Assembly (NCBI GenBank): GCA_964201005.1 | Contig: CAXNCS010000002.1 | Span: 78,773-142,772, forward strand | Reading direction: 5' to 3' | Origin: Myxococcota bacterium | GTDB lineage: Bacteria; Myxococcota_A; UBA9042 | DNA length: 64,000 nt | Part shown: piece by piece, positions 11,713-55,005 of the stretch | How positions within the stretch are numbered: the stretch's first letter is position 1 | Layout: every line of letters begins with the position of its first letter | Notes under the pieces: generated by a model | Seen by the model: only the letters and a program-made list of their open reading frames with translations | Database searches by the model: none | Told to the model about the DNA's origin: nothing | Program-made: the position numbers and the translations under genes

Positions 11713-11750
11713 CGCGGAACGGCCTCAAGGCCCATTCAGCCAGGCGACTC

Positions 11751-12251: not shown

Positions 12252-12299
12252 GCCGCAAACAACCATCGGGATGGCGGTGTTCGCGCTGCCCTCCCGCTG

Positions 12300-35575: not shown

Positions 35576-38500
35576 TCAAGCGCCGTGAGCTGCCTCATCC
35601 GCGGTCATGTGGCATTTCTTATACTTTTGGCCGCTGCCGCACCAGCACGGATCGTTGCGGCCGATCTTGGGGCGATCGCGGCGGAACGTCTCGGGCTTGG
35701 CGTGATCGCCGGCCGGTTCTGCCAAGGCCGCAAAGGACTCGTCGTCGGCCAGTTCAGGCGGCAACGCGGCTTGGGCGGCCGCCTGGGTGCGCTGCTGCGT
35801 CGCCGCGGCCGATTGCACCGGTTCCACCGCGCCGGCACCGTTAGCCGCGGCTACCGCGACCGACTTGCGCGCCGCATAAGCCTGCACCGCCGCAGAAGCT
35901 TTCTGCTGCATCCGCTCCGCGCGCTTCTGCAGCTGGGCGATCTTCTCCGGGGCCATTTGCGCCAGCTGGGCCTGCATCTGGGCCTGCATTTGCGCTTGGA
36001 TCGCCTCCATGCGCGCTTGGGCCGCCTCTGGGCCCTCGTGCTCGACCGCTTGATCGTGCAGGCTGGCGGTCTCGTGCTGCTCCTGCATCGCCTGGCGGGC
36101 CTTGGCGCGGCGCAACTCAGCCTGCTTGCGCAACTGCTCCACTTCCGCCGCGGATTTGACCTCGACCTGGAACATCTGCTCGACCAGCTGGATCTCAATG
36201 CGCTCGATCATCTGCTTGAACAGCTCATAGCCCTGCTTCTTGTAGATGAGCTTGGGATCCTTTTGCGCGTAAGCCTCTAGATACACGCCTTCTTTGAGGC
36301 CATCCATGATGCGCAGGTGCTCGCGCCAGTGGGTGTCGATGCCGCGCAGATACGCTTCGCGCTCGTAGTAGACCCACTGCTGCTCGGCCTGCTCCTTGGC
36401 CGCCGCTTCGCCCTCCGCGGACTCGTCGTGATCCATCGTGTGCAGAATCTGATCGACCAGCCGCTCGCGCCGCTCCGTGTACTCGCGCGCCAGGTGCTTC
36501 TCAATGCTGCGCTGCAGGGTCTCAAAGTCGCGCGGCACATCGGTCAGGTCGATGTCTTCCTTGAACAATTGGTCCAGCTCATCTTCCAGGTCCTCGAGCT
36601 TCCAATCGAGCGCGTTGGTCCCCTGCGGGCAGAAGCGGTCGACCAGGCGGAACACCACCTCGCTCAGCGCGCCCTGCACAAGGTCCGCGGTGGTTTGCGC
36701 CGACAACACCTTGCGCCGCAGCGCGTAGATCGCCTTGCGCTGCAGGTTCATCACGTCGTCGTACTCGAGCACGTTCTTGCGCGAGTCAAAGTGCTGACCT
36801 TCCAAGCGCTTTTGCGCGTCGCCGATGGCGTTGGTCACCGAGCTGGCGATGATCGGCTCGTCTTCCGGAATGCGCAGAAACTCCATGATCTTGCGGACGC
36901 GATCGCCGCCAAAGATGCGCATGAGGTCGTCGTCCAGCGACAGATAGAACTGCGACTCGCCCGGATCGCCCTGACGGCCCGCGCGGCCGCGCAGCTGGTT
37001 GTCGATGCGCCGCGACTCATGGCGCTCGGTGCCCAGGATCAGCAAGCCACCGGCAGCCAAGACCTTTTGCTTCTCTTCTGCGCACTGCACCTTGAGCCGG
37101 GCCAGCGCTTCCACGTACTGGGGATCGTGCTCGTCAAAAGCTTCGTGGACACGGCCGCCGCCAAAAACCTCTGAGCGGGCCAACAATTCCGGATTGCCGC
37201 CGAGCAGAATGTCCGTGCCGCGACCCGCCATGTTGGTCGAGATGGTCACCGCGCCGAGCCGACCGGCCTGGGCGACGATATCGGCCTCGCGGGCGTGCTG
37301 CTTGGCATTGAGAACGTTATGCGGAATGCCCACTTCCTTGAGCAGGTCGGCGAGGAACTCGGATTTTTCGACCGAGATGGTGCCCACCAGGACCGGCTGG
37401 CCCTTCTCATTGGCTTCCTTAATGTGCTCAATAACTTGCTTGAACTTGGCCCTCTCGGTCTTGTAGACCACGTCTTCGTGATCGACGCGCTGGATATTGC
37501 GGTTGGTCGGGATCACCAGGCAGTCCAGCTTGTAGATGTTGCTGAACTCCTCCGCCTCGGTCTCCGCGGTGCCGGTCATGCCGCAGAGCTTCTCGTACAT
37601 ACGGAAATAGTTCTGGAAAGTCACCGTCGCCAGGGTCTGCGACTCCTCTTGGACCTTGACGCCTTCCTTCGCCTCAATCGCCTGGTGAATGCCGTCCGAC
37701 CAGCGCCGACCGGGCATCTTGCGGCCGGTGTGCTCGTCAATGATGACGATTTTGCCCTCTTCGATCAGGTAGTTGACCCCAAAGCGGAACAGCGTATGGG
37801 CCTTGAGCGCCGCGTGGATGTAGTGCACCCAGTGCATGTGCTCGGCGTCGTAGAGGTTGCCGATCTTCAGCCGCGCCTCGACCTTGTCTACCCCCGACTC
37901 CGTCAGCGACACAGAATGGGCTTTCTCATCGGTGATGTAGTCGAGATCGCGCTTGAGGAAAGCCACGATCGCATTGGCGCGGATGTACGGCTCGGTGGTG
38001 TCTTCGCCGCGGCCGGAGATGATGAGCGGGGTGCGCGCTTCGTCGATGAGGATCGAGTCCACTTCGTCGACGATCGCAAAGTGCAGCAGCTTGTCGGCCT
38101 TGGCGTCGTGGGCGGTGGGCAGGTAGCGGTGCACGTACTCGTCAAGCGAATACTTCATGTTATCGCGGAGATAATCGAAGCCCAGCTCGTTGTTCTGGCC
38201 ATAGGTGATGTCCGACATGTAGGCGCCGCGGCGCTTCCACTCGTCGACATTGGTGGTGACCACGCCGGTCGACAGGCCCAAGAAGCCGTAGACCTTGCCC
38301 ATCCACTCGCCGTCGCGTTGGGCGAGGTAATCGTTGACCGTGACGACGTGAACCCCTTTGCCGGTCAAGGCGTTGAGGTACGCCGGCAGGGTCGCCACCA
38401 AGGTCTTGCCTTCGCCGGTGCGCATTTCCGAGATGGTCCCGCGGTGCAGCGCGATACCGCCGATCATCTGCACGTCGTAGTGGCGCTGGCCCAGGGTGCG

Positions 38501-38728
38501 CCAAGCCGCTTCGCGGGTGACGGCAAACGCCTCTGGCAAAATGTCATCCAGCGTGGCGCCGCGAGAGAGTTTTTCCTTAAAGGTCGCGGTCATGGCGCGC
38601 AAGGCGTCATCGTCCATCGCCTTAAAGCGCGGCTCCAGGGCCCCGATCTGCTCGACCACCGGGCGGATTTTCTTGAGTTCGCGCTCGTTCTTGGTGCCGA
38701 ACGCTTTGGCCAGGAGCTTTTGCCACAT
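35576..38728 (-). CDS. secA: Preprotein translocase ATPase SecA with an extended C-terminal linker
   Basis: Canonical SecA N-terminus ([20 protein letters not shown]), DEAD-like motor motifs and the C-terminal zinc-binding [13 protein letters not shown]. Confidence 0.97.
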
Positions 38729-38896: not shown

Positions 38897-41800
38897 ATGC
38901 TTCACAACCGCTTGACCTCGACGCAGCTGCCCGGGGGGCACAGGTCTCCGCCCATCGCGGGCATTGCGCTGCGCCGACACCGCGCGCTGGGGCTCGCGCT
39001 GACCAGTTTGGTAGCGACCATGATCAGCGGCTGCGAGCTCTTGGGGATCGGCGACGAGCCGCCCAAGAAAGACACAGCGGTCGTCGATCCCTGTGATCTG
39101 GAACCGTATCTGGAGGGCTGTCCGTGCTTTGACGACCCGGCCCAGGATTTTTGCCCCGACCCGTGCTCGCTGGAACCCCCGGCGGCGCAGTGTGTCGATG
39201 GTGCGGGCGGCGATGCGCTGCAAGATGGCGCCGATACAGCGGATACTGCCGCGGATGCCAAGCCCGACACCAAGCCGGATGTGAAGCCCGATACCAAGGA
39301 TGGCGGCGGCCAAGATGGAGACCTGGGCCCAGAGGTGTCGATCGACGCTGAGGAAACCGCGGATGCAGACGACGCTGCGGACCCGGATCAGGCCGACGGC
39401 GAGGTAGAAGAAGACGCCCAGGTGGTCGACGTGCCGGCCGACCTCGGCGACGGCGGCGGTGGCGCGGACAGTTTTGACGCCAGTGTCGATCTGGGCCCCA
39501 CGCCGCTGCCCGACACGTGGATCCTCAGCGATGGCGCGGTGATCGCCGTGCCTCCAGAGGCGCAGTGGGACACCTGGCAGGGCGACGGCGGCGACACCGG
39601 CAAGAACGGCGGCGCGCTCTACTTGCCCGACGGCCTGGTGATCCCGGTGGCCGGCCCAGGCGACGGCTGCCAAAGCGACGGCGAATGCGTGGGACCGCCC
39701 AAGAACTGCCAGGCCTTGGTGTGCCTAGCCGCCAAAGCTGGAGGAGCAAAAACCTGCCAGTACGCACCCTTGCAGGAGGGCCTGGCCTGCAGCGACGGCA
39801 ATGCCTGCACCGACGGCGACAGCTGCCAGGCCGGCGAGTGCAAGGGCTGGGCCAAGATCTGCGCCGACAAGGACTCCAACCTCTGCACCATCAGCAGCTG
39901 CGATCCCAGCAAGGGCTGCGTGGTGACCAACGCGGCCAACGACACGCCGTGCAACGACGGCAACAGCTGCACCGACGCAGACAGCTGCTTTTACGGCAAG
40001 TGCAAGCCGGGATCGGTCAACAAGTGCGAGTGCACCAAGACCTCTGACTGCCTGGCTTTTGACGACGGCAACCTGTGCAACGGCGAGGTCAAGTGCATCG
40101 CCGGCACCTGCATGACCGACAGCAACAGCGTGCAATGGTTTGACAAAGTCGCCAACCTGCTCTGCGATCCCAGCGGCGACAAGCCGTGCGTGACCAACCT
40201 CTGCAACCCCAAGAACGGCCAGTGCCAAATGACGCCCAGCCCCGCGGCGAGCGCCTGCAGCGACGGCGACGCCTGCACCCTGGGCGACGGCTGCCAGGGC
40301 GGCCAGTGCCTCCCCAGCGGCGGCCCGCGCAGTTGCGATGACAAAAATCTATGCACGACAGACAGTTGCGACTCCAAGAAGGGCTGCCTGCACAAGCCCG
40401 CGACCTACCTGTGCGACGACGGCGATCCCTGCACCAGCGGCGATTTGTGCAGCGGCGGACAGTGCAAAGGCGAGCCGCAAAGCAGCTGCAGCTGCGCGAA
40501 CGATGGCGACTGCGCCGGCAAGAACGATGCCAACTTGTGCAACGGCCAGCTCAAATGCGTCCAGGGCAGCTGCCGAATTGACCCGGCCACCGTGGTGACC
40601 TGCGCCGACGGCGGAGCGTGCGCCAGCTCAAGCTGCGACACTGCCACAGGAAAGTGCAGTACAACCCATGTTCAAGCGGGCCTACCGTGCCAGGATGGCA
40701 GCGCGTGCACCCAGGCCGACCAGTGCGACGGCCAGGGCGCGTGCAAGGGCAAGATCGCCACGGTGTGTGACGACGGCAACCCGTGCACGGCTGACGCCTG
40801 TTCCGCGGTCAACGGCTGCGTCAGCGCGATCACCAGTGGCGCTTGCGACGACGGCGACGCCTGCAGCGCTGCAGATGTCTGCGCGAACGGCCAGTGCCAG
40901 CCCGGGGCCAATGTGTGCGCGTGCAGCAAGGACGACGACTGCGCCAAGGTGGGCGGGCTCGACAAGTGCAAGGGCCTGTGGACCTGCGACACGGCCAACG
41001 GCAGCTGCGAGTACGATCCCTCCAAGGCAGTCAAGTGCAGCGGCGACGGAAAAAATCCTTGCACGATAACGGCTTGCCAGCCAAGCACCGGCCAGTGCGC
41101 CAGCAGCAGCTTGGCCAAAGATACCCCCTGCGACGACGGCTTGTACTGCACGGTCTTGGACCGCTGCGGCCCCGGCGGTTGCTCAGGCGACGCCAATCCC
41201 TGCAGCGACGGCTTGGCCTGCACGGCGGACAGCTGCAAAGAGGACGCGCCGACCACCGCCGAAGCGTGCACCCACGACGCCGCCGTCTTGGAGAAACTGC
41301 CCTGCAGCGACGGTTCGCTCTGCACCAGCGGCGACGCGTGTGTCAGCGGCTATTGTGTCGGCACACCGGGGAGTTGCGATGACAAGAACCCGTGCACCGT
41401 GGACGCCTGCGACATGCTGCTCGGCTGCACCTACTTGGCGGCGGAGAAGGCCACCGCGTGCAGCGACGGCAACGCGTGCACCGGCGACCCCGCCAAAGGC
41501 TCGACTTTTGTTCAGGACGGCTGTGACGGCTTTGGCAAGTGCGCCGCCGGCGAGGCCAAAGTGTGCGGCTCGGACAATCCGTGCGTAGAAATTCCGTGCA
41601 ATCCCACGGCTGTAGACGTTCAGCCGGGCACGCCCTTGGGCTGCGAGCAAAAGAAGCTGCTGGACGGCAAGAGCTGCGACGACGGCAACGCCTGTACCAA
41701 CAATGACTTGTGCCAGGTCGGCCTGTGTGCACCGGGCACGGAGACCTCCTGCGACGACGGCAACAGCTGCACCACCGACGGCTGCGAGGCCAAGAGCGGC

Positions 41801-44302
41801 TGCAGCCACGCGAATTCGACGGCGCCGTGCAGCGATCAGGACCCCTGCACGGACAAGGATGCGTGCAACGGCGGCGCCTGCAAAGGCGTTCCTGCCACCT
41901 GCGACGACGAAAACGTCTGCACGGCGGATAGTTGCGATCCCAAGGCCGGCCTGGTGGATGGCTGCGTCCACAAGGCGGCCCAGGGCGATTGTGGCAACTT
42001 TGCCGCCTGTTCCAGCGCCGACGTGCCGCAGTGCGCCTTTAAGGCCGGCCACTTGGTCATCAGCGAAGTCTATGTAGGCGTGCCCGGGGACCCGAGCGAT
42101 GACTGGGTAGAGATCCACAATCCGACCAATCAGTTCGCCAAGCTCGATGAGCTGCAGCTGGAGGCGAGGCCGGTCGACGCGGAGGTCAAAGCGGCGTGGA
42201 AGGTGTTGGCCAAAGGCAAGTCCGGGGTGCTGCTGGCGCCCAAGGGCTATGCGCTGTTTGCGGCGAGCGCGGTGCTCCAAGGCGGCGTGGTGGCGGACAC
42301 GGTGGCGGCCGAGCTGAACCTGGCCCTGCCGCTGAGCAATCCGCCCGGAACCGCCGACTGCTTTGTCGACAGCCTGCGCCACCTGCAGCTGCGCCTGCGC
42401 GATCCGCTCCACCAGCTGGAGCACGACCGCCTCGCCTGGGATGACGGCCAAGCCCAGAGCCTGCCTAAGGAATTGCAGCCGGTGGACGCAAGTGCCGAGC
42501 TGTGGCCGGCGTTTACCTCCATTGAGCGCAAAGCCAGCGGATCGTCCGACGTCAACTCCATGTACCCCCACAAAGCCGAGTGGTTGGCCGGCAATGCCGA
42601 GGACAGCGGCGTGGACAGCGACGACTTCTTGGTGCGGTGGTGGCCGGAGCCGCAGTCGCAAGCCAGTGGCAAGTTTGAGCCAGCGTGTGGCGGACTTTGC
42701 CCCTTGACCAAGATCTGCAACTTTAAGGTTGGTGCCGATACCTGCGTAGACGATGGCGAATGCAAGTCTTTTGGCGCCAGCGCGGCGGCAGCGTGTGGCC
42801 CGGGCAAGGTCTGCGGCGCCGGCCTGTCTCAATGCCTGGCCGATCCCCAGGGAACCGTGGTGATCAGCGAGGTTTTCTTTGGCGACAGCGGCGAGCAATT
42901 TGTCGAGCTGTACAACGCCTCGGCCAAGACCATCGGCGTGGGTGGCTGGAAGCTGCAGCGAAAAAACCCAGAGAATGAGCAGTACTTGCCGTGGATCAAC
43001 ACCTTGGCGACCCTGCCCGCAGGTACGGTGCTGCCGGCCAAGCGCTATTTGCTCATCGGCACGCAGCAGTGGGCCCGCACCCACGGCCAGACCGACGTGG
43101 TCGTGCCGGTCGCGATGGTGGATCAGGGCGGCGGCGCGCTGCGGCTGTGGGATCCGGCGAGCGACGCAGAGGTCGACCTGCTAGGTTGGGGCAACGCCAA
43201 GGCTTTTTCCAACGCCTCGACCGGCGGCATCTACAAAGCGGCCGCGGCGCCCAAGCTGGGGCAATCGCTGGAGCGCAAGGCCAAGTCGGCCTCGACCAGC
43301 GGCAGCATGAGCCCCGGGGGCGGCGACGATCTGCAGGGCAATGGCGCCGATACCTCCAATGACGGTGCGGACTTTGTGATCAACGACCCGTCGCCCCAGA
43401 CCTTTGGCGCAGCGGTGTTTGAGCCGGCTTGCGGCGGCAGTTGCGCGGCGGGCCTGGTGTGCAACTACCTGATTGGCGGGGGTCAGGCCTGTGTCGACCC
43501 GCTGTGCGGCGTGCCTTGCGACCTGGGGCTGGGCTGCAACCCGGTCAGCGGCGTGTGCGATCTGCGGCTGCTGGTGGCAGAGGTGGCCACGGACGGCCTG
43601 CAGGCCAAGGACCAGAACGGCGTGGCGATGTCGCCGGCCAACAACGAGTATGTGGTGCTGTATAATCCGTCGCCTAGCTCGATCATGCTGAGCAAAGTCG
43701 AGACGATCGGCGGCATCAAGACCACCACAGACGCGCTGATCTTGCAGGCCCAAGCCCTGGCGAGCACGAGCTGGGGCAAGCTGACCGACAACGATCTCAA
43801 GAAATTGCCTCTGAGCGGCAGTGTCGCCCCCTATTCCTACTACCTGGTGGCCCCTCCGTCCCACGATGCCTCGTTGCCCCTGCCCGACTACGTCAGCGCG
43901 ACTCCATTTGGCCTGGACGGCAACGTCGGCGCCGTGCGCATTGCCCGCCTCAACGGCACCTACCCCTGGGGCAGCGGCGAGCTGGACCGCGTGGCGTGGG
44001 GTGCGGCCAAGGCCAAAGACGGCGAAGGGAAAACCGCTGTAGAACCGCAGGTCTCCAAGACATGCGCTACGGGACAGGGCGGCGCAATCCGGCGTTTGGC
44101 CCAGGTTGGCAGCGCAGTACAGATCGCCGACCCGTTTAGCGGCGCCTTCTATGCGGGCGCAGGGCGCGACACCAACGACAATGGCGCCGACTGGGTGCGG
44201 GTGCCTCAGCGCCGGCCTCGTTCGCAAAAGTGCAGCCAGCCTGAGGATATTGGCGCCGGCAAGCCGTTCTGCGCGGGCTACCCCTTGGCGCAGCGGCCTT
44301 GA
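38897..44302 (+). CDS. Giant (1801-aa) lipoprotein: acidic tether, mixed Cys-rich modules, three lamin-tail (LTD) domains
   Basis: The lipobox is MISGC. A D/P/K-rich tether is followed by CxDGNxCT repeats interleaved with three ~40-aa CxC...DC...LCNG..KC modules. Three LTD-like modules sit at about 42050-42650, 42850-43400 and 43565-44215 (e.g. VVISEVFFGDSGEQFVELYNASAKTIGVGGWKL). They are separated by FEPACGG Cys linkers. Confidence 0.85.
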   Translation: MLHNRLTSTQLPGGHRSPPIAGIALRRHRALGLALTSLVATMISGCELLGIGDEPPKKDTAVVDPCDLEPYLEGCPCFDDPAQDFCPDPCSLEPPAAQCVDGAGGDALQDGADTADTAADAKPDTKPDVKPDTKDGGGQDGDLGPEVSIDAEETADADDAADPDQADGEVEEDAQVVDVPADLGDGGGGADSFDASVDLGPTPLPDTWILSDGAVIAVPPEAQWDTWQGDGGDTGKNGGALYLPDGLVIPVAGPGDGCQSDGECVGPPKNCQALVCLAAKAGGAKTCQYAPLQEGLACSDGNACTDGDSCQAGECKGWAKICADKDSNLCTISSCDPSKGCVVTNAANDTPCNDGNSCTDADSCFYGKCKPGSVNKCECTKTSDCLAFDDGNLCNGEVKCIAGTCMTDSNSVQWFDKVANLLCDPSGDKPCVTNLCNPKNGQCQMTPSPAASACSDGDACTLGDGCQGGQCLPSGGPRSCDDKNLCTTDSCDSKKGCLHKPATYLCDDGDPCTSGDLCSGGQCKGEPQSSCSCANDGDCAGKNDANLCNGQLKCVQGSCRIDPATVVTCADGGACASSSCDTATGKCSTTHVQAGLPCQDGSACTQADQCDGQGACKGKIATVCDDGNPCTADACSAVNGCVSAITSGACDDGDACSAADVCANGQCQPGANVCACSKDDDCAKVGGLDKCKGLWTCDTANGSCEYDPSKAVKCSGDGKNPCTITACQPSTGQCASSSLAKDTPCDDGLYCTVLDRCGPGGCSGDANPCSDGLACTADSCKEDAPTTAEACTHDAAVLEKLPCSDGSLCTSGDACVSGYCVGTPGSCDDKNPCTVDACDMLLGCTYLAAEKATACSDGNACTGDPAKGSTFVQDGCDGFGKCAAGEAKVCGSDNPCVEIPCNPTAVDVQPGTPLGCEQKKLLDGKSCDDGNACTNNDLCQVGLCAPGTETSCDDGNSCTTDGCEAKSGCSHANSTAPCSDQDPCTDKDACNGGACKGVPATCDDENVCTADSCDPKAGLVDGCVHKAAQGDCGNFAACSSADVPQCAFKAGHLVISEVYVGVPGDPSDDWVEIHNPTNQFAKLDELQLEARPVDAEVKAAWKVLAKGKSGVLLAPKGYALFAASAVLQGGVVADTVAAELNLALPLSNPPGTADCFVDSLRHLQLRLRDPLHQLEHDRLAWDDGQAQSLPKELQPVDASAELWPAFTSIERKASGSSDVNSMYPHKAEWLAGNAEDSGVDSDDFLVRWWPEPQSQASGKFEPACGGLCPLTKICNFKVGADTCVDDGECKSFGASAAAACGPGKVCGAGLSQCLADPQGTVVISEVFFGDSGEQFVELYNASAKTIGVGGWKLQRKNPENEQYLPWINTLATLPAGTVLPAKRYLLIGTQQWARTHGQTDVVVPVAMVDQGGGALRLWDPASDAEVDLLGWGNAKAFSNASTGGIYKAAAAPKLGQSLERKAKSASTSGSMSPGGGDDLQGNGADTSNDGADFVINDPSPQTFGAAVFEPACGGSCAAGLVCNYLIGGGQACVDPLCGVPCDLGLGCNPVSGVCDLRLLVAEVATDGLQAKDQNGVAMSPANNEYVVLYNPSPSSIMLSKVETIGGIKTTTDALILQAQALASTSWGKLTDNDLKKLPLSGSVAPYSYYLVAPPSHDASLPLPDYVSATPFGLDGNVGAVRIARLNGTYPWGSGELDRVAWGAAKAKDGEGKTAVEPQVSKTCATGQGGAIRRLAQVGSAVQIADPFSGAFYAGAGRDTNDNGADWVRVPQRRPRSQKCSQPEDIGAGKPFCAGYPLAQRP

Positions 44303-44416
44303 TCTGCGGGTCTGGCGAACGGCGTTGAAGCGGAGGCGGATGCCCGCTACTCTGGATAGGCGGCGCGTTGCGCGGGGAGCGGCGCGTTGGGTTTTTGGTC
44401 GATTGGGGGAGTCATC

Positions 44417-47400
44417 ATGGATTTCAAGGGTAAAGCCCAGGGCGCAAGCCGGACTCGCTGGGCGACAGCTGCCAGGGCCATCGGCCTCGCAGCGGCGCTG
44501 ACACTGCTGGGACTCGCAGGCGCCTGCTCCACCCCTTCTGGCGGCGGCGGCGGCGGCTACTGGGATCCCGATGCGGTCTGGGACAGTTACGTCGGCGACC
44601 TTGCCCCAAGCGATCTGACGAGCAGCGATCAGCTGTCGGCCGACCAGCTGGCCAGCGACGGCACACTGGCCGACGGCACCTCTGGCAGCGACACGGCCGC
44701 GGGGGACACCGCCAGTGTCGACAGCGGCTGCAGCAAGCCGGCCGATTGCGACGACGGCGAGCCCTGTACCACCGACAATTGCAGCGCAGGCAAGTGCAGC
44801 CACAGCGCCGTGGCCGGCTGCGTCAAGTCGGCGACCCCCTGCGACAGCAAAAACCCATGCAGCAGTGGTGTTTGCGACAGCCAGTCCCGCAGCTGCGTGG
44901 CGTGCCTCCAGGGCAGCGACTGCGGCGGCGGCAAGACCTGCGTGGCCAAGCAGTGCGTGGCGGCGCCGCCGTGCAAGTCCGACGTGGAGTGCAAGGCCAG
45001 CAAGCAGGTGTGCGACAAGGGCCTTGGGGCGTGCGTAGACTGCACCGTGCCGGGCGACTGCGGCGGCGGCTTTGCCTGCGTGCAAAACAAGTGCTTTGCC
45101 GCCAAATCCTGTGGCAGCAGCAAGGATTGCGACAAGGTGTGCGACCTGGAGCTGGGCTACTGTGTCGAATGCCTGAGCGCCGACGACTGCCCCATCGGCC
45201 AGATGTGCAACGCCTCGAGACAATGCAAACCGGTAGTGTGCAGCAACAACAGCTGCGGCGCCGGGCAGAGCTTCTTTGTCTGTGCACCAGGCGGGGCGGG
45301 CTATCAGGCGGGGGTGAATTGCGAGGACAGCAACCCATGCACGGACAGCAGCTGCTCGCCAGAGAAGGGCTGCGTCACCAAATACAACGTCAAGACCTGC
45401 AGCGACGGCGACGCGTGCACGACGGGCGATGCCTGCGGCGCGGGGCTGTGCAGCGGTAGCTCGATCAACTGCAACGACAATAATCCGTGCACCAGCGACA
45501 CCTGTAGCGCCAAAAGCGGCTGCGTCTACAGCGCGCTCAACGGCAGCTGCGACGACGGCAACCCTTGCACGGAAGGCGATTTTTGTGCGTCCAAAGTGTG
45601 CAAGGGCAGCCCCAAGAACTGCGACGACGGCAATCCGTGCACCGCCGACACCTGCAACGGCCAGATCGGCTGCACCAACACGCCCAACAGCGCGCCGTGC
45701 AACGACAATAACCAGTGCACCCAGAGCGACATGTGCAGCGGCGGCAGCTGTCAGGGCGCGCCGATCAAGTGCGACGACGGCAACCCTTGCACAACCGACA
45801 ACTGCGATGCGTTTAGCGGGTGCGTCTCCAGCAATAACAGCAGCTTGTGCGACGATGGCAATGCTTGCACCGTGGGCGACAGCTGCGCTTTTGGCTTCTG
45901 CAACCCCGGCACGGCCAAAAACTGCAGCGACGGCAACCCGTGCACCAACGACAGCTGCAGCGGCGGCACCTGCAAGTACGCCCCTAACTCCGTGGGGTGC
46001 AATGACAATAACCCCTGCACCACCGGGGATTTCTGCAGCAACAGCTCTTGCCAGGCCGGCACCGGGGCGGCCAACTGCGACGACGGCAACAGCTGCACCG
46101 ATGACAGCTGCGTGGCCAATGTAGGCTGCAAGAATGCCGCGAATACTGCCACTTGCAACGACTCGAATGCGTGTACCAGCGCGGATACCTGCGGCGCTGG
46201 CAGCTGCAAGGGCGGCGCGGCGGTCGTGTGCGATGACAAGGATGGCTGCACCGCCGATACCTGCGCGCCCACCACCGGCTGCAAGGCCACCGCCGACACG
46301 GCCAAGTGCGACGACAAAAATCTATGCACGACAGACAGTTGCTCATCTCCCGACGGCACATGTGGCCATGTCGCACTGGCAGGCTGCTGCACCGCGACCG
46401 CCGATTGCGACGACAAGGACCCTTGCACGGACGACTATTGCGCTGGCAACAGCTGTGTTCACAAGAACAACGGCTCGTGCTGCAAGGTAGACGGCGACTG
46501 CAGTGACGGCAGCTTGTGCACCGGCGATACCTGCGTCGATGGCAAGTGCAAGTTCAGCACTTTGCCGTCGCCCGCCACGCCCACCTATGAAGTCGATTGG
46601 GAGAATCCGGGCGATTACGAGGGCTGGGTGGCCAATCCGGCGGTCTCTGGCTTGGGCTGGAGCCAGGCGAGCGGGCTGGGCGCGTCCAGCGGCGCCGGGG
46701 CCCTCAAGTTTGGCCTGACCGCGGGCGGTTCCTTCGCCGCCATCACCGGCGCGGTGAGCTCACAGGTCTTGGGCCCCAAGTTCAAGGTCCCGCTGGGCGG
46801 CGGCACGGCGATGACCTTTGCCTGGAAGCAGATGTTCACTGGGGTCAGCTTGTCGACCTACCCGCCGATCAAGGTGGAGATCTTGACCGGGACGAAGATC
46901 TGGACCGCCTACACCGGCTACTACACGACCAGCACGGCGTTTACCCCCGTCACCGTTGATCTGAGCCCCTTTGGCGGCCAGGACGTGCAAGTTCGCCTCA
47001 AGGGCACCGTCTACGGCAACACCACCACAAAGGCCGCGGGGACGGGGATCTTGCTGGACGCGCTCAAGGTTCAGTGGAGCTGCACCGGCGCCAAGACCTG
47101 CACCGCGGACAGCAGTTGCGCCAATACCGTGGGCTGTTCTGAAGGCCTCTGCGTCGCCGGCAAGTGTTCCTATAGCTACAAGTGCTGTGCGGCGGCGGCG
47201 GACTGCAACGACGGCATTTCCTGCACCACCGACACCTGCGCCACGGACAAGTGCCAACACACCAAAGCCGCGGGCTGCTGTACGTCAGATGCGGGCTGCA
47301 GCGACGGCTTGACCTGCACCATGGACAGCTGTGGTGCGGATAACAAGTGCAAATTCCTATCCATCGCCGACTGTTGCACCGCGGACAGCCAATGCAACGA

Positions 47401-48088
47401 CGGCAGCACCTGCACCGTCGACAGCTGCAAGGCCGGTAAGTGCGTGTACACGGACACGTGCTGCAAGTCGGACGCCGAGTGCAACGACAACGATGACAAG
47501 TGCACCACCGACAAATGCGTAGCCGGCAAGTGCACTTATGCGTCCACTGGCCAGCCGGGCTGCTGCCTGCCGGAGCTGTACAAGGAGAGCTTTGACGGCA
47601 CGGGCTTGACCGGCTGGACCCTGACCAACAGCGCTGGGGCGGCCAAGGGCTGGCAAGTGTGGAAGACGCCCAGCATCGCCGCCAAAAGCGCGCCCGCGGT
47701 GCTGTATTACGGCGACCCGTTGGTGAAGAACTTTGACTTTGGCGGCGTGGCCAACAGCGGCACGGCGACTTCTGCGACCGTGACAGTGCCCGCGGCCAGC
47801 GCCAAGCCGGTGCTCAAATTCTGGGTCTACAAGGACTCGGAGATGGGCGGCGGCAGCTACGATCGCCTGGACCTGTATGTCGTGAAAGCGGGCGTGCAGA
47901 GCGTGTTGCTGACCGAGGCGTCCTCGACCTATACCGCCCAAGCGTGGAAGGAGGTCTCGGTCGAGCTCGGCGGTTATGCCGGACAAACCCTGCAGATTCG
48001 CTTCTCCTTTGCCACGGGCGACTCGGTCGGCAATAGCGGGCTTGGCGTGCTGATCGACGACGTGCGCCTGACCCAGACTTGCCTGTAA
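44417..48088 (+). CDS. Giant (~1223-aa) Cys-rich lipoprotein/secreted protein with two jelly-roll (MAM / choice-of-anchor-J-like) modules
   Basis: ATG 44417 follows GGGGAG. The signal peptide ends LAGAC and is followed by a G6 run. Short 4-Cys knots, CxDGNxCT repeats and five CC-bracketed ~34-aa modules (about 47170-47570) follow. Two Cys-poor beta-rich modules lie at about 46585-47085 and 47575-48085 (GWTLTNSAGAAKGWQVW...LIDDVRL). Confidence 0.85.
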   Translation: MDFKGKAQGASRTRWATAARAIGLAAALTLLGLAGACSTPSGGGGGGYWDPDAVWDSYVGDLAPSDLTSSDQLSADQLASDGTLADGTSGSDTAAGDTASVDSGCSKPADCDDGEPCTTDNCSAGKCSHSAVAGCVKSATPCDSKNPCSSGVCDSQSRSCVACLQGSDCGGGKTCVAKQCVAAPPCKSDVECKASKQVCDKGLGACVDCTVPGDCGGGFACVQNKCFAAKSCGSSKDCDKVCDLELGYCVECLSADDCPIGQMCNASRQCKPVVCSNNSCGAGQSFFVCAPGGAGYQAGVNCEDSNPCTDSSCSPEKGCVTKYNVKTCSDGDACTTGDACGAGLCSGSSINCNDNNPCTSDTCSAKSGCVYSALNGSCDDGNPCTEGDFCASKVCKGSPKNCDDGNPCTADTCNGQIGCTNTPNSAPCNDNNQCTQSDMCSGGSCQGAPIKCDDGNPCTTDNCDAFSGCVSSNNSSLCDDGNACTVGDSCAFGFCNPGTAKNCSDGNPCTNDSCSGGTCKYAPNSVGCNDNNPCTTGDFCSNSSCQAGTGAANCDDGNSCTDDSCVANVGCKNAANTATCNDSNACTSADTCGAGSCKGGAAVVCDDKDGCTADTCAPTTGCKATADTAKCDDKNLCTTDSCSSPDGTCGHVALAGCCTATADCDDKDPCTDDYCAGNSCVHKNNGSCCKVDGDCSDGSLCTGDTCVDGKCKFSTLPSPATPTYEVDWENPGDYEGWVANPAVSGLGWSQASGLGASSGAGALKFGLTAGGSFAAITGAVSSQVLGPKFKVPLGGGTAMTFAWKQMFTGVSLSTYPPIKVEILTGTKIWTAYTGYYTTSTAFTPVTVDLSPFGGQDVQVRLKGTVYGNTTTKAAGTGILLDALKVQWSCTGAKTCTADSSCANTVGCSEGLCVAGKCSYSYKCCAAAADCNDGISCTTDTCATDKCQHTKAAGCCTSDAGCSDGLTCTMDSCGADNKCKFLSIADCCTADSQCNDGSTCTVDSCKAGKCVYTDTCCKSDAECNDNDDKCTTDKCVAGKCTYASTGQPGCCLPELYKESFDGTGLTGWTLTNSAGAAKGWQVWKTPSIAAKSAPAVLYYGDPLVKNFDFGGVANSGTATSATVTVPAASAKPVLKFWVYKDSEMGGGSYDRLDLYVVKAGVQSVLLTEASSTYTAQAWKEVSVELGGYAGQTLQIRFSFATGDSVGNSGLGVLIDDVRLTQTCL

Positions 48089-48168
48089 GCTCAACTCGCC
48101 ACTTGGCGCTTTTTCACAGTGGCGAAGGCGACAGCAGCGACCGGTGCGGCTAGACTGAGCCGAGCGGC

Positions 48169-49575
48169 GTGCGCCGCGCTGTCGTGACCATGACGAACAA
48201 CCCCTTGCGGTTTCAACGGATCTGCGCAACTCGCCTGCACATCGGGTTCACCGCTGGGGCCCTTGCTCTCTTGGCGAGCGCTGCACCGGCCCAGGCCCAA
48301 GCAGATGGCCCTTGGAGCCCTGCCAAAGCCTGGAGCGAAGCGCAACGCCTGAGTCCACAGCTGCGCGCCGCCGACGCCACCGCAGACGCCGCCAAGGCCC
48401 GCATCGACATCGCCCGCATCCCGCAGATTCCAACCGCGGCGATCGAAGCGACCCACAGCGAATCCACGGCCAACTTTGTCGCGCGTCCCGGCTCGGTGCC
48501 CAAGAGCTTTTCTTCCACCGGATCGACCTTTTCTCTGGAACCCTTTGGATTTTGGCATGCTGGGGCGAGTAGCCGCTGGACCTTTGCCGATTTTGGCCGC
48601 ACCAGCGCATCTGTGAACGCCGCCGACCACGCCGCCCAAGCCGCCGGGGCCGATGCCCGCAGCATCCGCAGGCAGGTGTGGTTGCAGGTGATGAGCGCCT
48701 ACCAGCTTGTGTTGACTGCAGAAGCTGGCGTGGTGACAGCCAAGGAGACCCGCGATCAATCGGCCCAGCGCCGCGAATTGGCCAAGAGCCGGGTCGAAGC
48801 TCGGGTCCGGCCGCCGCTGGATCTGGCGCGGGCGGAGAGCGACCTCGCCTCTGCCGAAGTAGCGGTTTTGCGTGGAGAAGAGCAGGTCAGGGCCGCGAGA
48901 ATTGCCCTGGCTGTGGCCATTGGCCTGACCCAAGCCGTCGCCGGACCGCTGGCGCCGCTGAGCCTGCCGGATGCAGAACTGACGGACGAGCGCCTGCAAT
49001 CCGCCGAGGCCTTGGACAAATGGACCGACAGCGCCGCTGCCGAGAGGCCGGAGATCGTCGGCCTGGCCCAGCGCCATCAGGCCGCCTTGGCAGAGCTGGC
49101 AGTGGTGCAAAAGACCGCCAATCCAAGCCTTTATCTTGGGGCATCTGCCACCTTGGCCGGCACCCAATTGGCGGCGATGGCTTTCAACCTGGGGCTCACG
49201 GCTGGCGTGACTTGGCCGATCTCCGGGATGTGGCTGGCGAGCCCGCAGATCGCCGAAGTGCGCGCGCGGATCCGCGCCTTGGACGGCCAGGAACAGAGCT
49301 TGCGCCTGAGTGTGCGCGGTGAACTGGATGCCGCGCGGACAGCCGTCGCCCAAGCGCGCAAGCGCCGCCCTGCCCTTGCGACCCTGCAGCAATTTGCCAA
49401 TCAGGCCTATGAACAGGCCAAAGTCCGCTACACCGCTGGCGCTTCGACGATGACCGAGGTGATCGACGCCGCTTCAGCGGTCAGCCAAGCGCGCCTGCAG
49501 CTGCTCCAAGCCGACTTGGATGAGGCGCTGGGCGTGGCGCGTTGGTGGGCGGCGATGGGCAGGCTGCCTGAATGA
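48169..49575 (+). CDS. TolC/OEP-family outer-membrane channel protein
   Basis: A signal peptide ending APAQAQ is followed by two-fold repeated helical OEP-like sequence (...RVEARVRPPLDLARAESDLASAEVAVL... / ...YTAGASTMTEVIDAASAVSQARLQLLQA...). The start is GTG 48169 or ATG 48190. Confidence 0.7.
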   Translation: MRRAVVTMTNNPLRFQRICATRLHIGFTAGALALLASAAPAQAQADGPWSPAKAWSEAQRLSPQLRAADATADAAKARIDIARIPQIPTAAIEATHSESTANFVARPGSVPKSFSSTGSTFSLEPFGFWHAGASSRWTFADFGRTSASVNAADHAAQAAGADARSIRRQVWLQVMSAYQLVLTAEAGVVTAKETRDQSAQRRELAKSRVEARVRPPLDLARAESDLASAEVAVLRGEEQVRAARIALAVAIGLTQAVAGPLAPLSLPDAELTDERLQSAEALDKWTDSAAAERPEIVGLAQRHQAALAELAVVQKTANPSLYLGASATLAGTQLAAMAFNLGLTAGVTWPISGMWLASPQIAEVRARIRALDGQEQSLRLSVRGELDAARTAVAQARKRRPALATLQQFANQAYEQAKVRYTAGASTMTEVIDAASAVSQARLQLLQADLDEALGVARWWAAMGRLPE

Positions 49576-49590
49576 TCCGCCAAGCTGAAC

Positions 49591-52191
49591 TCAGAAATCC
49601 GCAGAAAGCTTGAACGATCCGCTGCGCCCTGGCACCACCACTTCTACGGCAAGCACGCGGCCGGCACCCACAATGTACTGGTCCTGCTCGGCAAACTTGG
49701 CCCGCAGCTGCACTTGGCACTGGTGCTCGCAGGCGGCTGGAGCCTTGTCCGTAAAGAGGGCGACGGCAAACCAGCCGGGCAGCACCGCGGCGATCAAGGC
49801 TTCGCTCGACTGAATGTCCACCTGCAGCGGATGCACGCGCGGGGTCTCGTCGTCGCCCGCCACAGGGTCGATGGCGAAGGCCGCAAGCCCCTTGTCCGTC
49901 GGCAGAATCACCAGCTGGGTGCCCTGAAAACTCCAGTGACCCACCAGCCAATCGGCCGAGCGGAGCTTGGGCATCACGCCGCGGATCTTGAGGTCCGGGG
50001 TGGCACCTGCAGGCAACTCATAGCGAATTTCAGCACTTGACTTCTTGGGCACCAGCATTCGCTCGTCGCGCCCGGTGCCGACATCAAAGATCACCGTCAG
50101 GTCGCGCGGGCTGCTGTTGCGCAATTCGACCTTGATGGGCGTGGTCTTGTCCGAGCTGCCGCGTTCGGCGCCGCTGACCCGGCCGCTGATCGCCGCTCCG
50201 TCTTCAGCCCTCTTGCGCAATACTTCATCGATCGCCTGCAGTTGCACGTCCACCAGCCGCGAACCGGGGTGCTGACTCCACACTTTGGCGATCGCCTCCA
50301 GATTGGCCTCGGGCTCCAACGCGCGTTTGTCGAGCGCCATCTCGCGGCGCACCGGTCGCACCAGCCCCAAGCGCGGCACGCTGGCCGCCGTATCGCAGCC
50401 GTAGCGGTACTGCAGCACCAGGCCCACTTTGCTGCGCAACGGCGAGCTCTGCGGTGTGCACGGCCCCTTCCACACGCCGCTCGCGGTACCGCCTGCGTCC
50501 AGCAGCTTGGCGAGGCGCGTCGACCCCACCCGCACGTCCACCAGGGCCGGCTGCTTGGTCGGATTCTTGAGCGTCCAGGCCACTGAAACCTCGCGGGGCA
50601 GCATGTGGCGGGCCATCGTCGCCGAAGCCTCGTCCAGGTCGCGCCTCACCTGCGCAGCATCCACCGCTGCGGCGAATTCCACCTCATCGTCAGACACCTG
50701 CGGCTGATCCGTCGTCAGCCAAGCCTGGGGCCGGGCGCGCGCCGCCTTCTGGAGCCGGGCAAACGCCTTGTCGTTCTCCGCGCCGTCGGGCGCCTGGGCC
50801 AGGTAGTCGAGCCACGCCGCTTCACCGCCGTCCTTGGCGGCACTCTCAAACTTCGCCGGCCAATCGGCCGCGGCCGCCTTGCCTTTGTCCTTCTTGCGCG
50901 CCGCCTCCTGAGCGCGTTCCTCCGCTAGCTGGCGCGCTTCCTCGTCTTTCTTCGCCTCGGCGGCCTTTTTCGCTTCGGCTTCCTTCTTGGCCTCGGCGTC
51001 TTTCTTGGCCTCCGCTTCCTTCTTAGCTTCGGCGTCCTTCTTGGCCTCGGCATCCTTCTTGGCCTCGGCGTCCTTCTTGGCCTCGGCGTCCTTCTTGGCG
51101 TCCGCGTCCTTTTTGGCTTCGGCGTCCTTCTTGGCCTCCGCGTCTTTGTTGGCTTCTGCGGCCTTTTTTGCGTCCACGTCCTTCTTGGCGTCCGCGACTC
51201 GCTTGGCCTCCGCGTCTTTGTTGGCTTCTGCGGCCTTCTTCGCGTCCACGTCCTTCTTGGCGTCCGCGACTCGCTTGGCCTCCGCCTCCTTCTTTGCTTC
51301 CGCCTCCTTCTTGGCCTTGGCCTCTGCGTCCTTCTTGGCCTTGGCGTCGGCTTCTTTCTTGACGTCCGCGTCCTTCTTGGCCGAGATTTTTCCCGTCGCT
51401 TCGGCGAGCTTGCGAGCCTTTTCTTCAGCGGACTTGCGGGCTTTCTCTAGCTCAGCCTCCTTCTTGCGCCGCTCCAAGTCCGCAGCTTCCGCCTGCTTGC
51501 GCGCCTTGGCCGCCTCCACCTCCAGGCGCTTGTGATCGCGCTCGGCTTCTTCGACCTCTTTGCGCACCTTGTCGGCCTCCGCCTCCTTCTTTTTGCGCTC
51601 TTTCTCCTCCGCCTCGGCGGCAGCGCGAGCGGCTTTCTCTTTCTCAGCCGCCGCTGCCCTTTCCGCGCGGTCTTTCTCTGCCGCAGAAGCGCGCTCAGAC
51701 TCGCGGCGGACCCGTTCAGCCTCCGCGGCGCGGGTCTTTTCCGATTTGGCGGCGTTGGCCGCGTCTACAGCGTCATCGGCCCGCGGGGTGCGCACGCACT
51801 TGCCCACCCACTGAAAGTCGCGGCCATCGCCTTCGCCGGGCACGCCTTTGCGGCTGGGGTTGTCGACGCGCTCTTCTCGCACCTCCGCCACCGCATCGCA
51901 GCCGTAGCGCGCCGCCGAGTCGAGCAGCTGCTCTTCTGCCGGGCCCTGCGGCGTGCTTTGGCGGGTGGTCCGCAAGCGCAATTCCCCAAGCACTACAGAG
52001 GGCTGCGGCAAGTCCGCCACCTTGCCCGCCATGGCAATCGCCGCGCTCGAGGGCAGTGCGCCGTAGCGCCCCGTGCCCAGCGCCCGGTCAAATTGCACCG
52101 TCGATCCACAGCCGCTGACCAGGAGGGCCACCAAGCCCGCGTGGGCCCAGGGCAATTGCCAGGAGGAGCGATGGTCTTGGCGGTTCTGCAT
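49591..52191 (-). CDS. 866-aa lipoprotein with a ~290-aa E/K/A/D-rich charged helical spacer
   Basis: The lipobox is LLVSGC. A ~115-aa N-domain is followed by a charged low-complexity region (aa ~146-437, nt ~50881-51756) dominated by (KKDAEA)n. A ~430-aa C-terminal globular region follows. Confidence 0.8.
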   Translation of the reverse strand: MQNRQDHRSSWQLPWAHAGLVALLVSGCGSTVQFDRALGTGRYGALPSSAAIAMAGKVADLPQPSVVLGELRLRTTRQSTPQGPAEEQLLDSAARYGCDAVAEVREERVDNPSRKGVPGEGDGRDFQWVGKCVRTPRADDAVDAANAAKSEKTRAAEAERVRRESERASAAEKDRAERAAAAEKEKAARAAAEAEEKERKKKEAEADKVRKEVEEAERDHKRLEVEAAKARKQAEAADLERRKKEAELEKARKSAEEKARKLAEATGKISAKKDADVKKEADAKAKKDAEAKAKKEAEAKKEAEAKRVADAKKDVDAKKAAEANKDAEAKRVADAKKDVDAKKAAEANKDAEAKKDAEAKKDADAKKDAEAKKDAEAKKDAEAKKDAEAKKEAEAKKDAEAKKEAEAKKAAEAKKDEEARQLAEERAQEAARKKDKGKAAAADWPAKFESAAKDGGEAAWLDYLAQAPDGAENDKAFARLQKAARARPQAWLTTDQPQVSDDEVEFAAAVDAAQVRRDLDEASATMARHMLPREVSVAWTLKNPTKQPALVDVRVGSTRLAKLLDAGGTASGVWKGPCTPQSSPLRSKVGLVLQYRYGCDTAASVPRLGLVRPVRREMALDKRALEPEANLEAIAKVWSQHPGSRLVDVQLQAIDEVLRKRAEDGAAISGRVSGAERGSSDKTTPIKVELRNSSPRDLTVIFDVGTGRDERMLVPKKSSAEIRYELPAGATPDLKIRGVMPKLRSADWLVGHWSFQGTQLVILPTDKGLAAFAIDPVAGDDETPRVHPLQVDIQSSEALIAAVLPGWFAVALFTDKAPAACEHQCQVQLRAKFAEQDQYIVGAGRVLAVEVVVPGRSGSFKLSADF
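50941..51385 (-). repeat. In-frame tandem array of ~18-bp units (GGCCTCGGCGTCCTTCTT, encoding KKDAEA)
   Basis: About two dozen consecutive imperfect units read directly. All are in frame within CDS 49591..52191. Confidence 0.9.
51133..51276 (-). repeat. 72-bp tandem duplication (2 copies, 2 mismatches) inside the charged-repeat region
   Basis: Copy 1 spans 51133-51204 and copy 2 spans 51205-51276. They differ only in GCCTTTTTTGCG versus GCCTTCTTCGCG. Each encodes AKRVADAKKDVDAKKAAEANKDAE. Confidence 0.9.
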
Positions 52192-52326
52192 GGCGATGTC
52201 TCCGGTGGAGCGCTGGTCGCCCCATCGCGCCGCAGCATAGCGAAGAAAGCCGCGGCTGCGAATTGGCGAATGCCTGTGGCGGTGAGGATGCCGTTCAGGG
52301 GGATGCGCTCTGCGCGGCCGTCACCG

Positions 52327-54669: not shown

Positions 54670-55005
54670 GGGTTTACTGCCTCCGGGACGGGGCGAAATG
54701 CGCAAAGGAGCTCATCAACACGCGGCACAAGCGCTTGAAGTCGGCCGCGCTGGAGCGGCAACGCAACCGCGAACGCCCGGCGATCAGCTTGCATGCGATC
54801 GCCGCTACTGTCACCATTTTCGCCGTTCGAATGGCTACCGCCCCCATCCCTGGGGACAACTTCTTCAGTGTAGCGCATCCTCGGACGGTGTGCGCGCGTC
54901 CTACCTTCCCGAGCGACACGATCGCTCTGCTCTTGGGCGGCGCTGATGCCGCGGCCTCCGAGCCCTCTGAACGTTCCCTGACCTCGTCCGATTGGAGCCT
55001 TGCCC

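Follow-up and report, generated by a model that had tools for sequence, protein, structure and literature searches.

Lamin-tail domains (LTDs) occur in bacteria as accessory modules of extracytoplasmic hydrolases, and a membrane-directing or a DNA-binding role has been proposed for them. Fusions of LTDs to extracellular nucleases and to DNA-uptake proteins are recurrent. The only bacterial LTD protein with experimental data that we found in the literature is ExeM of Shewanella oneidensis, which carries a single N-terminal LTD together with OB-like and EEP nuclease domains; ExeM without its LTD is less active as a nuclease in vitro, and in vivo it can do without the domain (PMC6085458). Tandem LTDs in bacteria were already reported in 2004 by Mans et al., who, as cited in the ExeM paper (PMC6085458), also proposed that LTDs direct proteins to membranes. 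Our search of the literature found none on LTDs in Myxococcota.

Here we analyzed a gene encoding a protein with three LTDs, P0001, located in a 64,000-nucleotide stretch of DNA (the window) from an uncultured freshwater (lake) Myxococcota bacterium. A preliminary description of this DNA took bacterial LTDs to be single accessory modules for the most part, a view contradicted by the tandem LTDs of Mans et al., as far as they are quoted in PMC6085458, and by multi-LTD proteins of the same genome and of Rufibacter. At least five further proteins with 2 to 4 LTDs are encoded in this genome, which is 69% complete, and a Rufibacter protein gave four full-length matches, over about 190 aa each, to the second LTD of P0001 (E 3e-21 to 6e-14).

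P0001 resembles the tandem-LTD bacterial proteins grouped in PF00932 in fold, in sequence family, in the tandem arrangement of its LTDs and in its extracytoplasmic character, but its LTDs lie C-terminal to a Dicty_CTDC stalk and are spaced by 8-Cys mini-modules. In our homologue search the combination of stalk, LTDs and mini-modules was found in only one Myxococcota family. The nearest homologues outside this family are Pedobacter gliding-motility-associated/T9SS proteins combining LTDs with EEP (PF03372). These and Rufibacter roseus P0028, named 'cadherin-like beta sandwich domain-containing protein', carry the same extended LTD subtype of about 190 aa. The Bacteroidota proteins have 3 to 4 LTD copies each, with the ERKA...GN.D...DF...PQ C-terminal part seen in P0001. 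However, they possess catalytic EEP (PF03372) and/or T9SS sorting domains and no Cys-rich stalk, whereas P0001 has no enzyme domain and its anchor is a predicted lipobox. With the ExeM/NucH nucleases P0001 shares export, association with the envelope and the use of the LTD as an accessory module, but it lacks the nuclease and OB domains.

Gene organization

According to the open reading frame list and its translation, an ORF at 38897..44302 of the forward strand encodes the 1801-aa P0001, and a Shine-Dalgarno-like AAGGAA lies directly upstream of its ATG. The following features were delineated:

38897..44302, + strand: whole gene of P0001, LTD-stalk lipoprotein (Pfam LTD 81.6 bits, Dicty_CTDC 76.6 bits)
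38897..39034, + strand: signal peptide with lipobox ISGC and predicted lipidated Cys46 (sequence reading and homologue N-termini)
39035..39667, + strand: acidic low-complexity tether, aa 47-257, net charge -46 (composition)
39668..42034, + strand: Cys-rich stalk, aa 258-1046, 114 Cys (PF00526, Cys positions)
42044..42673, + strand: LTD module 1, aa 1050-1259 (PF00932, hhalign, AF2 beta-sandwich)
42674..42844, + strand: linker 1, 8-Cys mini-module FEPACGGLC..., aa 1260-1316 (Cys positions, hhalign)
42845..43417, + strand: LTD module 2, the canonical copy, aa 1317-1507 (PF00932 above cut-off)
43418..43564, + strand: linker 2, 8-Cys mini-module FEPACGGSC..., aa 1508-1556 (Cys positions, hhalign)
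43565..44221, + strand: LTD module 3, divergent, with an inserted beta-hairpin, aa 1557-1775 (hhalign, AF2, Foldseek)
44222..44299, + strand: basic C-terminal tail with conserved Cys pair C1779/C1792 and terminal QxP (family consensus)
44361..44389, + strand: terminator-like hairpin followed by T5, 59 nt 3' of the stop codon (consensus scan)

The last of these is a weak call because such sites are no commoner in the region than in shuffled sequence.

P0001 is a Sec-exported, predicted lipoprotein with its lipobox at Cys46. Its N-terminus shows an RRHR n-region, the hydrophobic stretch LGLALTSLVATM and then ISGC, in agreement with the lipobox pattern [LVI][ASTVI][GAS]C ending a signal peptide. 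In each of the 22 homologues inspected the N-terminus has a hydrophobic stretch that runs into a Cys, and 16 of them match the lipobox pattern searched. The tether that follows had no match in Pfam. In the stalk, PF00526 (Dicty_CTDC) scored 76.6 bits over 7 stretches of P0001, well past its gathering threshold of 27 bits; the repeats are of the type CxDGNxCTxxDxCxxGxC and their cysteines are nearly invariant among 23 sequences. The full-length homologues, of 1614-1941 aa, carry the same Pfam pair of LTD and Dicty_CTDC. At the other end of the protein, the family consensus of the tail reads KCxxPxxxxxxPxCxxxxxxQxP. No NCBIfam model matched the 1801-aa protein, and Pfam and NCBIfam searches of its full length revealed no catalytic domain, including no EEP or thermonuclease nuclease domain, and no OB-like, OB or HhH domain.

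The LTD modules and their linkers

Near the starts of the three modules stand LVISEV (aa 1053, nt 42053), VVISEV (aa 1321, nt 42857) and LLVAEV (aa 1558, nt 43568), and toward their ends the motifs DFLVR (aa 1243), DFVIN (aa 1492) and DWVRV (aa 1765). PF00932 gave 81.6 bits on the whole of P0001, in 2 stretches, clearly above its gathering threshold of 34.3 bits. Taken alone, module 2 scored 51.8 bits and covered profile positions 4-108 of 109, while module 1 (28.1 bits, E 2.7e-6) and module 3 (only 14.4 bits, E 0.049) fell under the cut-off. Nevertheless, comparison by BLASTP related module 1 to module 2 (E 5e-13), module 2 to module 3 (E 1e-5) and module 1 to module 3 (E 2e-3), and hhalign of sub-alignments from 23 family members gave probabilities of 100% (E 1.7e-42), 99.6% (E 1.4e-23) and 99.4% (E 5.3e-21) for the same three pairs. 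The similarity among the three repeats is thus far beyond chance, and these alignments make modules 1 and 3 homologues of module 2, which scores above the threshold. Judged by their sequence, the three belong to the 'extended' bacterial LTD subtype of about 190 aa, whose C-terminal part, ...S(I/L)ERKA...ST..SM...GN..D(T/S)..(D/N)..DF...P.PQ, is common to the Bacteroidota multi-LTD proteins. The distinct sequence of each module is maintained family-wide.

Concerning the fold, a sequence search of the PDB with the trio returned just a marginal lamin A/C match (E 0.21), so a comparison of structures was needed; it was made on predicted models of the trio and of module 3 alone. The AF2 model of the trio (aa 1041-1801, 761 aa) had a pLDDT of 85.3 and a pTM of 0.80, and that of module 3 reached 88.7 and 0.89. 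The top Foldseek matches of the trio model in the PDB were all lamin Ig-folds (2lll, 3gef, 3jt0 and 1ifr, TM(target) 0.68-0.76), and module 3 alone matched lamin A/C 3gef (TM(target) 0.66, probability 1.00) and lamin B1 as well; over both models the top matches had TM(target) values of 0.62-0.76 at probability 1.00. On the predicted models, then, the three modules are homologous Ig-like beta-sandwiches of the lamin-tail type. The Ig-fold tails of lamins A/C and B1/B2 (1IFR, 3GEF, 3JT0, 2LLL) are the best structural matches at an identity of only 10-23%; unlike them, the P0001 modules have long loops and a C-terminal extension of about 75 aa, and the cellular setting is entirely different.

These results support the main proposal of the preliminary description, namely three LTDs at the C-terminus of a Cys-rich lipoprotein. 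Its coordinates and motifs match the translation of ORF 38897..44302, and Pfam, hhalign and the predicted fold agree on the three domains. The PF00932 match it suggested looking for is significant, the predicted fold does resemble the lamin Ig-fold in Foldseek, and the lipoprotein assignment agrees with the basic n-region and hydrophobic stretch before ISGC, with homologues alike. The module length of about 190 aa holds for module 2 (191 aa) and is only approximate for modules 1 (210 aa) and 3 (about 220-245 aa).

The modules are separated by two linkers, both opening with FEPACGG (nt 42674, aa 1260, in linker 1; nt 43418, aa 1508, in linker 2). Each has 8 Cys, all of them invariant in 29 linker sequences of the family, and hhalign related the two linkers to each other with a probability of 98.8% (E 5e-17). 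Their AF2 pLDDT values were about 62-70 for linker 1 and about 86-93 for linker 2. No Pfam match at E <= 10 was obtained for the P0001 linkers, and the linker profile showed only weak similarities, to the CREMP eggshell module (PDB 9pgb, E 0.0047) and to Opy2 (13 of 29 members, best E 0.0035). The Cys-knot label that the preliminary description gave to these linkers gains no support from such matches, nor do they disprove it.

Distribution and genomic context

The P0001 gene is present in 9 of the 11 genomes of the genus (counting that of the window) and in 11 of 14 genomes from other genera of the family, nearly always as one copy per genome, and it was found in none of 16 genomes from other families of the class. 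Its inheritance is vertical, and as a single-copy gene it is confined to one family of uncultured Myxococcota. In some family members the alignment stops at about residue 560 of the 761 in the query and covers modules 1 and 2. The gene is under purifying selection: dN/dS is about 0.08 in the LTDs and <=0.02 in the linkers (0.017 in linker 1), and linker 2 has zero amino-acid changes with respect to a 96% relative.

Among 10 related loci the recurring neighbours are a divergently transcribed secA, a Ser/Thr kinase gene, a gene for a HEAT-repeat protein and a downstream ABC-F ATPase gene; none is an evident functional partner of P0001, and none of the genes conserved beside it is a competence, pilus or nuclease gene. 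The window and the 96% relative are the only loci in which a giant gene, P0002, and a TolC-like gene adjoin the LTD gene. For this reason we rejected the idea of a functional island containing the LTD gene, whose recurring neighbours have no evident functional link with it.

Possible role of the LTD trio

The order of parts in P0001 is an acidic tether of about 210 aa, a disulfide-rich stalk of about 790 aa, LTD, 8-Cys mini-module, LTD, 8-Cys mini-module, LTD and a short basic tail. Since the lipid anchor is N-terminal, we infer that a long, oxidatively folded stalk would hold the LTD trio at its distal end. There it would most likely form a non-enzymatic head, an adhesin or receptor, for an extracellular polymer or for the envelope of another cell; judged from the domain order, the multivalent distal binding head of the preliminary description would be plausible. 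A lipoprotein anchored at Cys46 whose Dicty_CTDC stalk presents the LTD trio as a non-enzymatic binding head is probably, on balance, the best overall explanation of the protein. Several observations speak against it: ExeM can do without its LTD in vivo, in the 10 related loci the recurring neighbours point to neither a ligand nor a pathway, module 3 misses the Pfam threshold on sequence alone, and the alignment of some family members covers modules 1 and 2 only.

In other bacterial surface proteins Ig-like sandwiches are often spacers. The LTDs of P0001 could likewise be passive Ig-like elements that lengthen or cap the stalk, any binding being left to the Cys-rich repeats or to the 8-Cys mini-modules. 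The linkers are indeed more conserved than the LTDs (dN/dS <=0.02 versus 0.08), and a pTM of 0.80 across 761 aa hints at a rigid arrangement in the model. However, the motifs SIERKA, GN..D...DF and PxPQ lie outside the hydrophobic core and are common to the LTDs attached to EEP domains in Bacteroidota, so a shared functional role fits better than filler; moreover, each module keeps its own conserved sequence throughout the family. We consider a pure spacer function unlikely for these reasons.

Most lipoproteins of the proteobacterial type face the periplasm. P0001 might accordingly be a periplasm-facing lipoprotein, for instance an envelope scaffold, with the LTDs contacting peptidoglycan or the membrane from inside, and the membrane-directing role proposed by Mans et al., as cited in the ExeM paper, would be in line with this. 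Yet with its roughly 1750 residues, 141 Cys, EGF-like/Dicty-type repeats and acidic tether P0001 resembles extracellular matrix or surface proteins, and TSP3, EGF and laminin-G modules, which are typical of exposed proteins, are found in other LTD proteins of this genome. Neither argument is decisive; still, we regard a periplasmic location as rather improbable.

The least probable alternative, quite doubtful in our judgement, is that by analogy with ExeM/NucH and ComEC-like LTDs P0001 would be a nuclease-less receptor whose LTD trio captures extracellular DNA: the recurrent fusion of LTDs to extracellular nucleases and DNA-uptake proteins, the EEP domains (PF03372) of the nearest Pedobacter multi-LTD proteins and the neutral to basic module 3 and tail (pI 8.4) favour it, but modules 1 and 2 are acidic (pI about 4.8; family median 4.8), the net charge of the whole protein is about -120, OB, HhH and nuclease domains are missing from P0001, no competence, pilus or nuclease neighbour is conserved in the 10 related loci and the literature holds no direct demonstration of DNA binding by a bacterial LTD. 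The acidity of modules 1 and 2, which argues against simple electrostatic DNA binding, led us to set aside a DNA receptor as lead explanation.

Returning to the binding head, a more specific form of it would be a putative lineage-specific surface appendage in which a rigid, disulfide-stapled stalk bears a fixed, specialised LTD trio, every module being conserved as a paralogue of its own and the high pTM suggesting that the head may be compact. Such a head would be a dedicated receptor whose target might be, for example, a matrix polymer or the envelope of prey. We hold this to be a long shot; if true, it would provide the first defined ligand and a non-enzymatic role for bacterial LTDs. A claim of novelty based on the tandem LTDs fails, as the design is common in bacteria and relatives are already auto-annotated; family member P0011, for instance, has been named "lamin tail domain-containing protein" by NCBI. 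Since tandem LTDs are widespread, the neighbours are uninformative and the databases recognise the family, the protein would not surprise a specialist, and as it stands the result has limited weight: a large surface-type protein has received its correct domain annotation. It does show that in one clade of uncultured lake Myxococcota a stalk lipoprotein with three LTDs at its tip is maintained in single copy, and a search for the ligands of prokaryotic LTDs could find a handy construct in a stable LTD trio that has no enzyme domain and is confidently modelled.

Other LTD proteins of the same genome

The multi-LTD proteins encoded on contigs C10, C14 and C40 of this genome are, like P0001, large and exported, with 2 to 4 LTDs interleaved with Cys-rich modules. 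They differ in that these modules are DUF4215, TSP3 and EGF instead of Dicty_CTDC and in that all their LTDs are above the Pfam cut-off, and they are not orthologous to the P0001 gene. Laminin-G modules, besides TSP3 and EGF, also occur among the other LTD proteins of the genome.

Organization of the LTD gene

The gene for the lamin tail domain (LTD) protein is preceded immediately by an AAGGAA motif 5' of its ATG and lies in a window of about 65% GC along its whole length, free of any compositional break. The gene and the regions of its product are as follows.

38897..44302, + strand: LTD-protein gene, a single long ORF of 1801 aa with the modules and linkers in its 3' third
aa 47-257: acidic low-complexity stretch, net charge -46
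aa 258-1046: cysteine-rich region (stalk), 114 Cys, Pfam Dicty_CTDC repeats at 76.6 bits
aa 1047-1801: the part pointed out in the preliminary description, with three modules (M1, M2 and M3) and two linkers
aa 1776-1801 (44222-44299, + strand): basic C-terminal tail; conserved Cys pair, terminal QxP

The N-terminus, ...RRHRALGLALTSLVATMISGC, shows a basic n-region and then a hydrophobic core that leads to a lipobox; lipidation is predicted at Cys46. In each of the 22 family members inspected, a hydrophobic stretch at the N-terminus closes on a cysteine; 16 of them match the lipobox pattern searched and the remainder carry close variants, e.g. GPGC and SSGC. The C-terminal tail (family consensus KCxxPxxxxxxPxCxxxxxxQxP) has no hydrophobic segment and matches no known sorting signal. 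No catalytic domain was found in the protein with Pfam or NCBIfam.

Identity of the three modules

The motifs quoted earlier were all located where described: the module starts LVISEV, VVISEV and LLVAEV at aa 1053, 1321 and 1558, the linker motif FEPACGG at aa 1260 and 1508, and DFLVR, DFVIN and DWVRV close to the module ends. M1 and M2 span 210 and 191 aa and M3 about 220-245 aa. BLASTP relates the modules to one another (M1-M2, E 5e-13; M2-M3, E 1e-5; M1-M3, E 2e-3), as does hhalign with sub-alignments taken from the 23-sequence family alignment; the repetition lies far beyond chance.

Profile-profile comparison of modules and linkers (hhalign)
M1-M2: probability 100%, E 1.7e-42
M2-M3: probability 99.6%, E 1.4e-23
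M1-M3: probability 99.4%, E 5.3e-21
linker 1-linker 2: probability 98.8%, E 5e-17

In Pfam, the whole protein scored 81.6 bits with the LTD model PF00932, against a gathering score of 34.3. The modules scanned alone gave the following.

M1: 28.1 bits, E 2.7e-6, significant yet under the cut-off
M2: 51.8 bits, profile positions 4-108 of 109
M3: 14.4 bits, E 0.049, by itself not significant

The case for M3 therefore rests on the profile-profile link and on structure. An AlphaFold2 model of aa 1041-1801, built from the family alignment, reached a mean pLDDT of 85.3 and a pTM of 0.80, and its top Foldseek matches in the PDB were lamin Ig-fold domains, namely 2lll, 3gef, 3jt0 and 1ifr (target-normalised TM 0.68-0.76, probability 1.00). 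A plain PDB sequence search almost misses this link, with lamin A/C at E 0.21. Folded alone, M3 gave a pLDDT of 88.7 and a pTM of 0.89, and its best matches were first 4q1z (Bacteroides DUF4876) and then the lamin A/C and B1 Ig-folds, with TM(target) of 0.62-0.67 and probability about 1.00. All three modules are thus predicted to be LTD-type sandwiches, M3 being a divergent copy that carries an inserted hairpin, and the proposed assignment of three LTDs is supported by PF00932 on the whole protein, hhalign and AlphaFold2/Foldseek. The 4q1z entry is Bacteroides thetaiotaomicron BT_1938, which M3 (43565-44221) matches at E 1.2e-3 over 312 aligned columns; the modelled fold hints at LTD-like sandwiches in DUF4876.

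The Pfam model has 109 positions versus about 190 aa in the modules. M2 aligns over its full length with four separate modules of one Rufibacter roseus protein (E 3e-21 to 6e-14), including the C-terminal part S(I/L)ERKA..ST..SM..GG.D...GNG.D(S/T)..N..DF(V/I)...P.PQ, so the 'D(F/W)V...P' ending marks the end of an extended bacterial LTD subtype. This bacterial subtype is widespread, and the ending is no peculiarity of the LTD protein.

The 8-Cys linkers

Each linker carries eight cysteines in the consensus YEPACxGTCxxGxVCNxxxGxxxCVDxxCxxxCGxGxxCNxxTGxC, all eight invariant in 29 family sequences, and the linkers are the most conserved portion of aa 1047-1801. Compared with a relative at 96% identity, linker 1 differs by a single amino acid and linker 2 by none, despite a dS of 0.46-0.52. 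The two copies matched no Pfam family, and the linker profile resembles, only weakly, a module of a cysteine-rich eggshell membrane protein (PDB 9pgb, E 0.0047) and, in 13 of 29 members, Opy2 (best E 0.0035). 'Cys-knot' is therefore a tentative label for the linkers, which may equally be stacked disulfide hairpins.

Other multi-LTD proteins

The view that bacterial LTDs are mostly single modules, and that a tandem is novel, is contradicted by Mans et al., who, as quoted in a paper on ExeM, a Shewanella oneidensis extracellular nuclease (PMC6085458), had already reported tandem LTDs in bacteria, and by multi-LTD proteins of the same genome and of Bacteroidota. The window's own genome (2.7 Mb, 69% complete) has 20 LTD matches; among them are at least five further large proteins, whose LTDs number 4, 4, 4, 2 and 2 and are mixed with modules of the types DUF4215, thrombospondin type 3, EGF and laminin-G:

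contig C40 (L013), 2034-5516, 5600-9226 and 9312-12635: three adjacent, co-oriented multi-LTD genes, which look like a paralogue cluster
contig C10 (L011), 2499-6653: multi-LTD protein
contig C14 (L012), 2347-6930: multi-LTD protein

The Bacteroidota proteins carry three to four copies of the same extended module, there beside EEP phosphoesterase and T9SS domains. The multi-LTD design is not unusual; what is specific here is that one protein unites a lipobox anchor, a Dicty_CTDC stalk, three LTDs and 8-Cys linkers.

Distribution and selection

A word-indexed protein search returned 24 clusters that share both Pfam families (LTD and Dicty_CTDC), 1128-1941 aa long (23 within 1614-1941 aa) and 33-96% identical in the C-terminal region. 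NCBI already lists one of them as 'lamin tail domain-containing protein [Deltaproteobacteria bacterium]'. The carriers are recorded as Myxococcota, Myxococcales or 'Deltaproteobacteria' MAGs, and that of the 96% relative has an isolate name ('ME2015-07-30...', 'Rohwer_bin') resembling a lake time-series sample. Whole-genome searches found the gene, nearly always single-copy, in 9 of 11 genomes of the genus (the window's own counted), 11 of 14 from other genera of the family and none of 16 from other families of the class. It is a lineage-restricted architecture of known modules, already auto-annotated in databases. In four more-distant members the alignment stops near residue 560 of the 761-residue query; M3 may be more variable or replaced in these members. 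Against the 96% relative, dN/dS is about 0.08 per LTD module, 0.09 in the stalk and 0.88 in the signal peptide; the gene is functional, under purifying selection and not hypervariable.

Possible role

We infer that the lipid-anchored stalk would hold out the three LTDs as a binding head without enzymatic activity. The LTD trio is distal to the anchor. It is unlikely that its LTDs are passive spacer modules. The cysteine-rich region must fold in an oxidising compartment. A periplasm-facing scaffold seems quite improbable. For the ligand, ExeM is the sole bacterial LTD with experimental data that we found in the literature. According to the ExeM paper, ExeM without the LTD degrades DNA more slowly in vitro with hardly any effect in vivo, and its authors weigh the domain as membrane-directing or directly part of nucleolysis (PMC6085458). 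Other papers take LTD DNA binding for granted by analogy with lamins. M1 and M2 are acidic family-wide (median pI 4.8), and M3 together with the tail ranges from neutral to basic (pI 8.4 in this protein, 6.5 as the family median); because of this we place a ligand of polysaccharide, envelope or protein nature ahead of naked DNA, a weakly founded order. An extracellular-DNA receptor is the least probable of the rival readings.

Genomic neighbourhood

The features flanking the LTD gene are:

35576..38728, opposite strand: secA, upstream
44361-44389, + strand: terminator-like hairpin then T5, 59 nt past the LTD-gene stop, between the two giant genes
44387..48088, + strand: gene of P0002, a second Cys-rich giant (1233 aa), downstream

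The hairpin is a weak call, such sites being no commoner than in shuffled sequence. In P0002, Dicty_CTDC repeats score 88 bits over 11 stretches; two choice-of-anchor J domains (NF038128) reach 44.2 bits, and there is a weak match to an InhA-like MAM domain. On one side, relatives keep the divergent secA together with genes for a Ser/Thr kinase and a HEAT-repeat protein; directly downstream there is often an ABC-F ATPase gene (loci including L015, L016, L017, L020 and L022). No functional connection of these neighbours to the LTD protein is evident, and no conserved partner pointing to a ligand or pathway was seen in the neighbourhoods compared. The window has no ABC-F gene anywhere; its LTD gene is followed by a block that comprises P0002, a TolC-like gene and the gene of an 866-aa lipoprotein (44303-54705). 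Of the loci compared, the window and the 96% relative alone have this block beside the LTD gene. The arrangement suggests a lineage-specific event, either an insertion or a rearrangement, downstream of the LTD gene.
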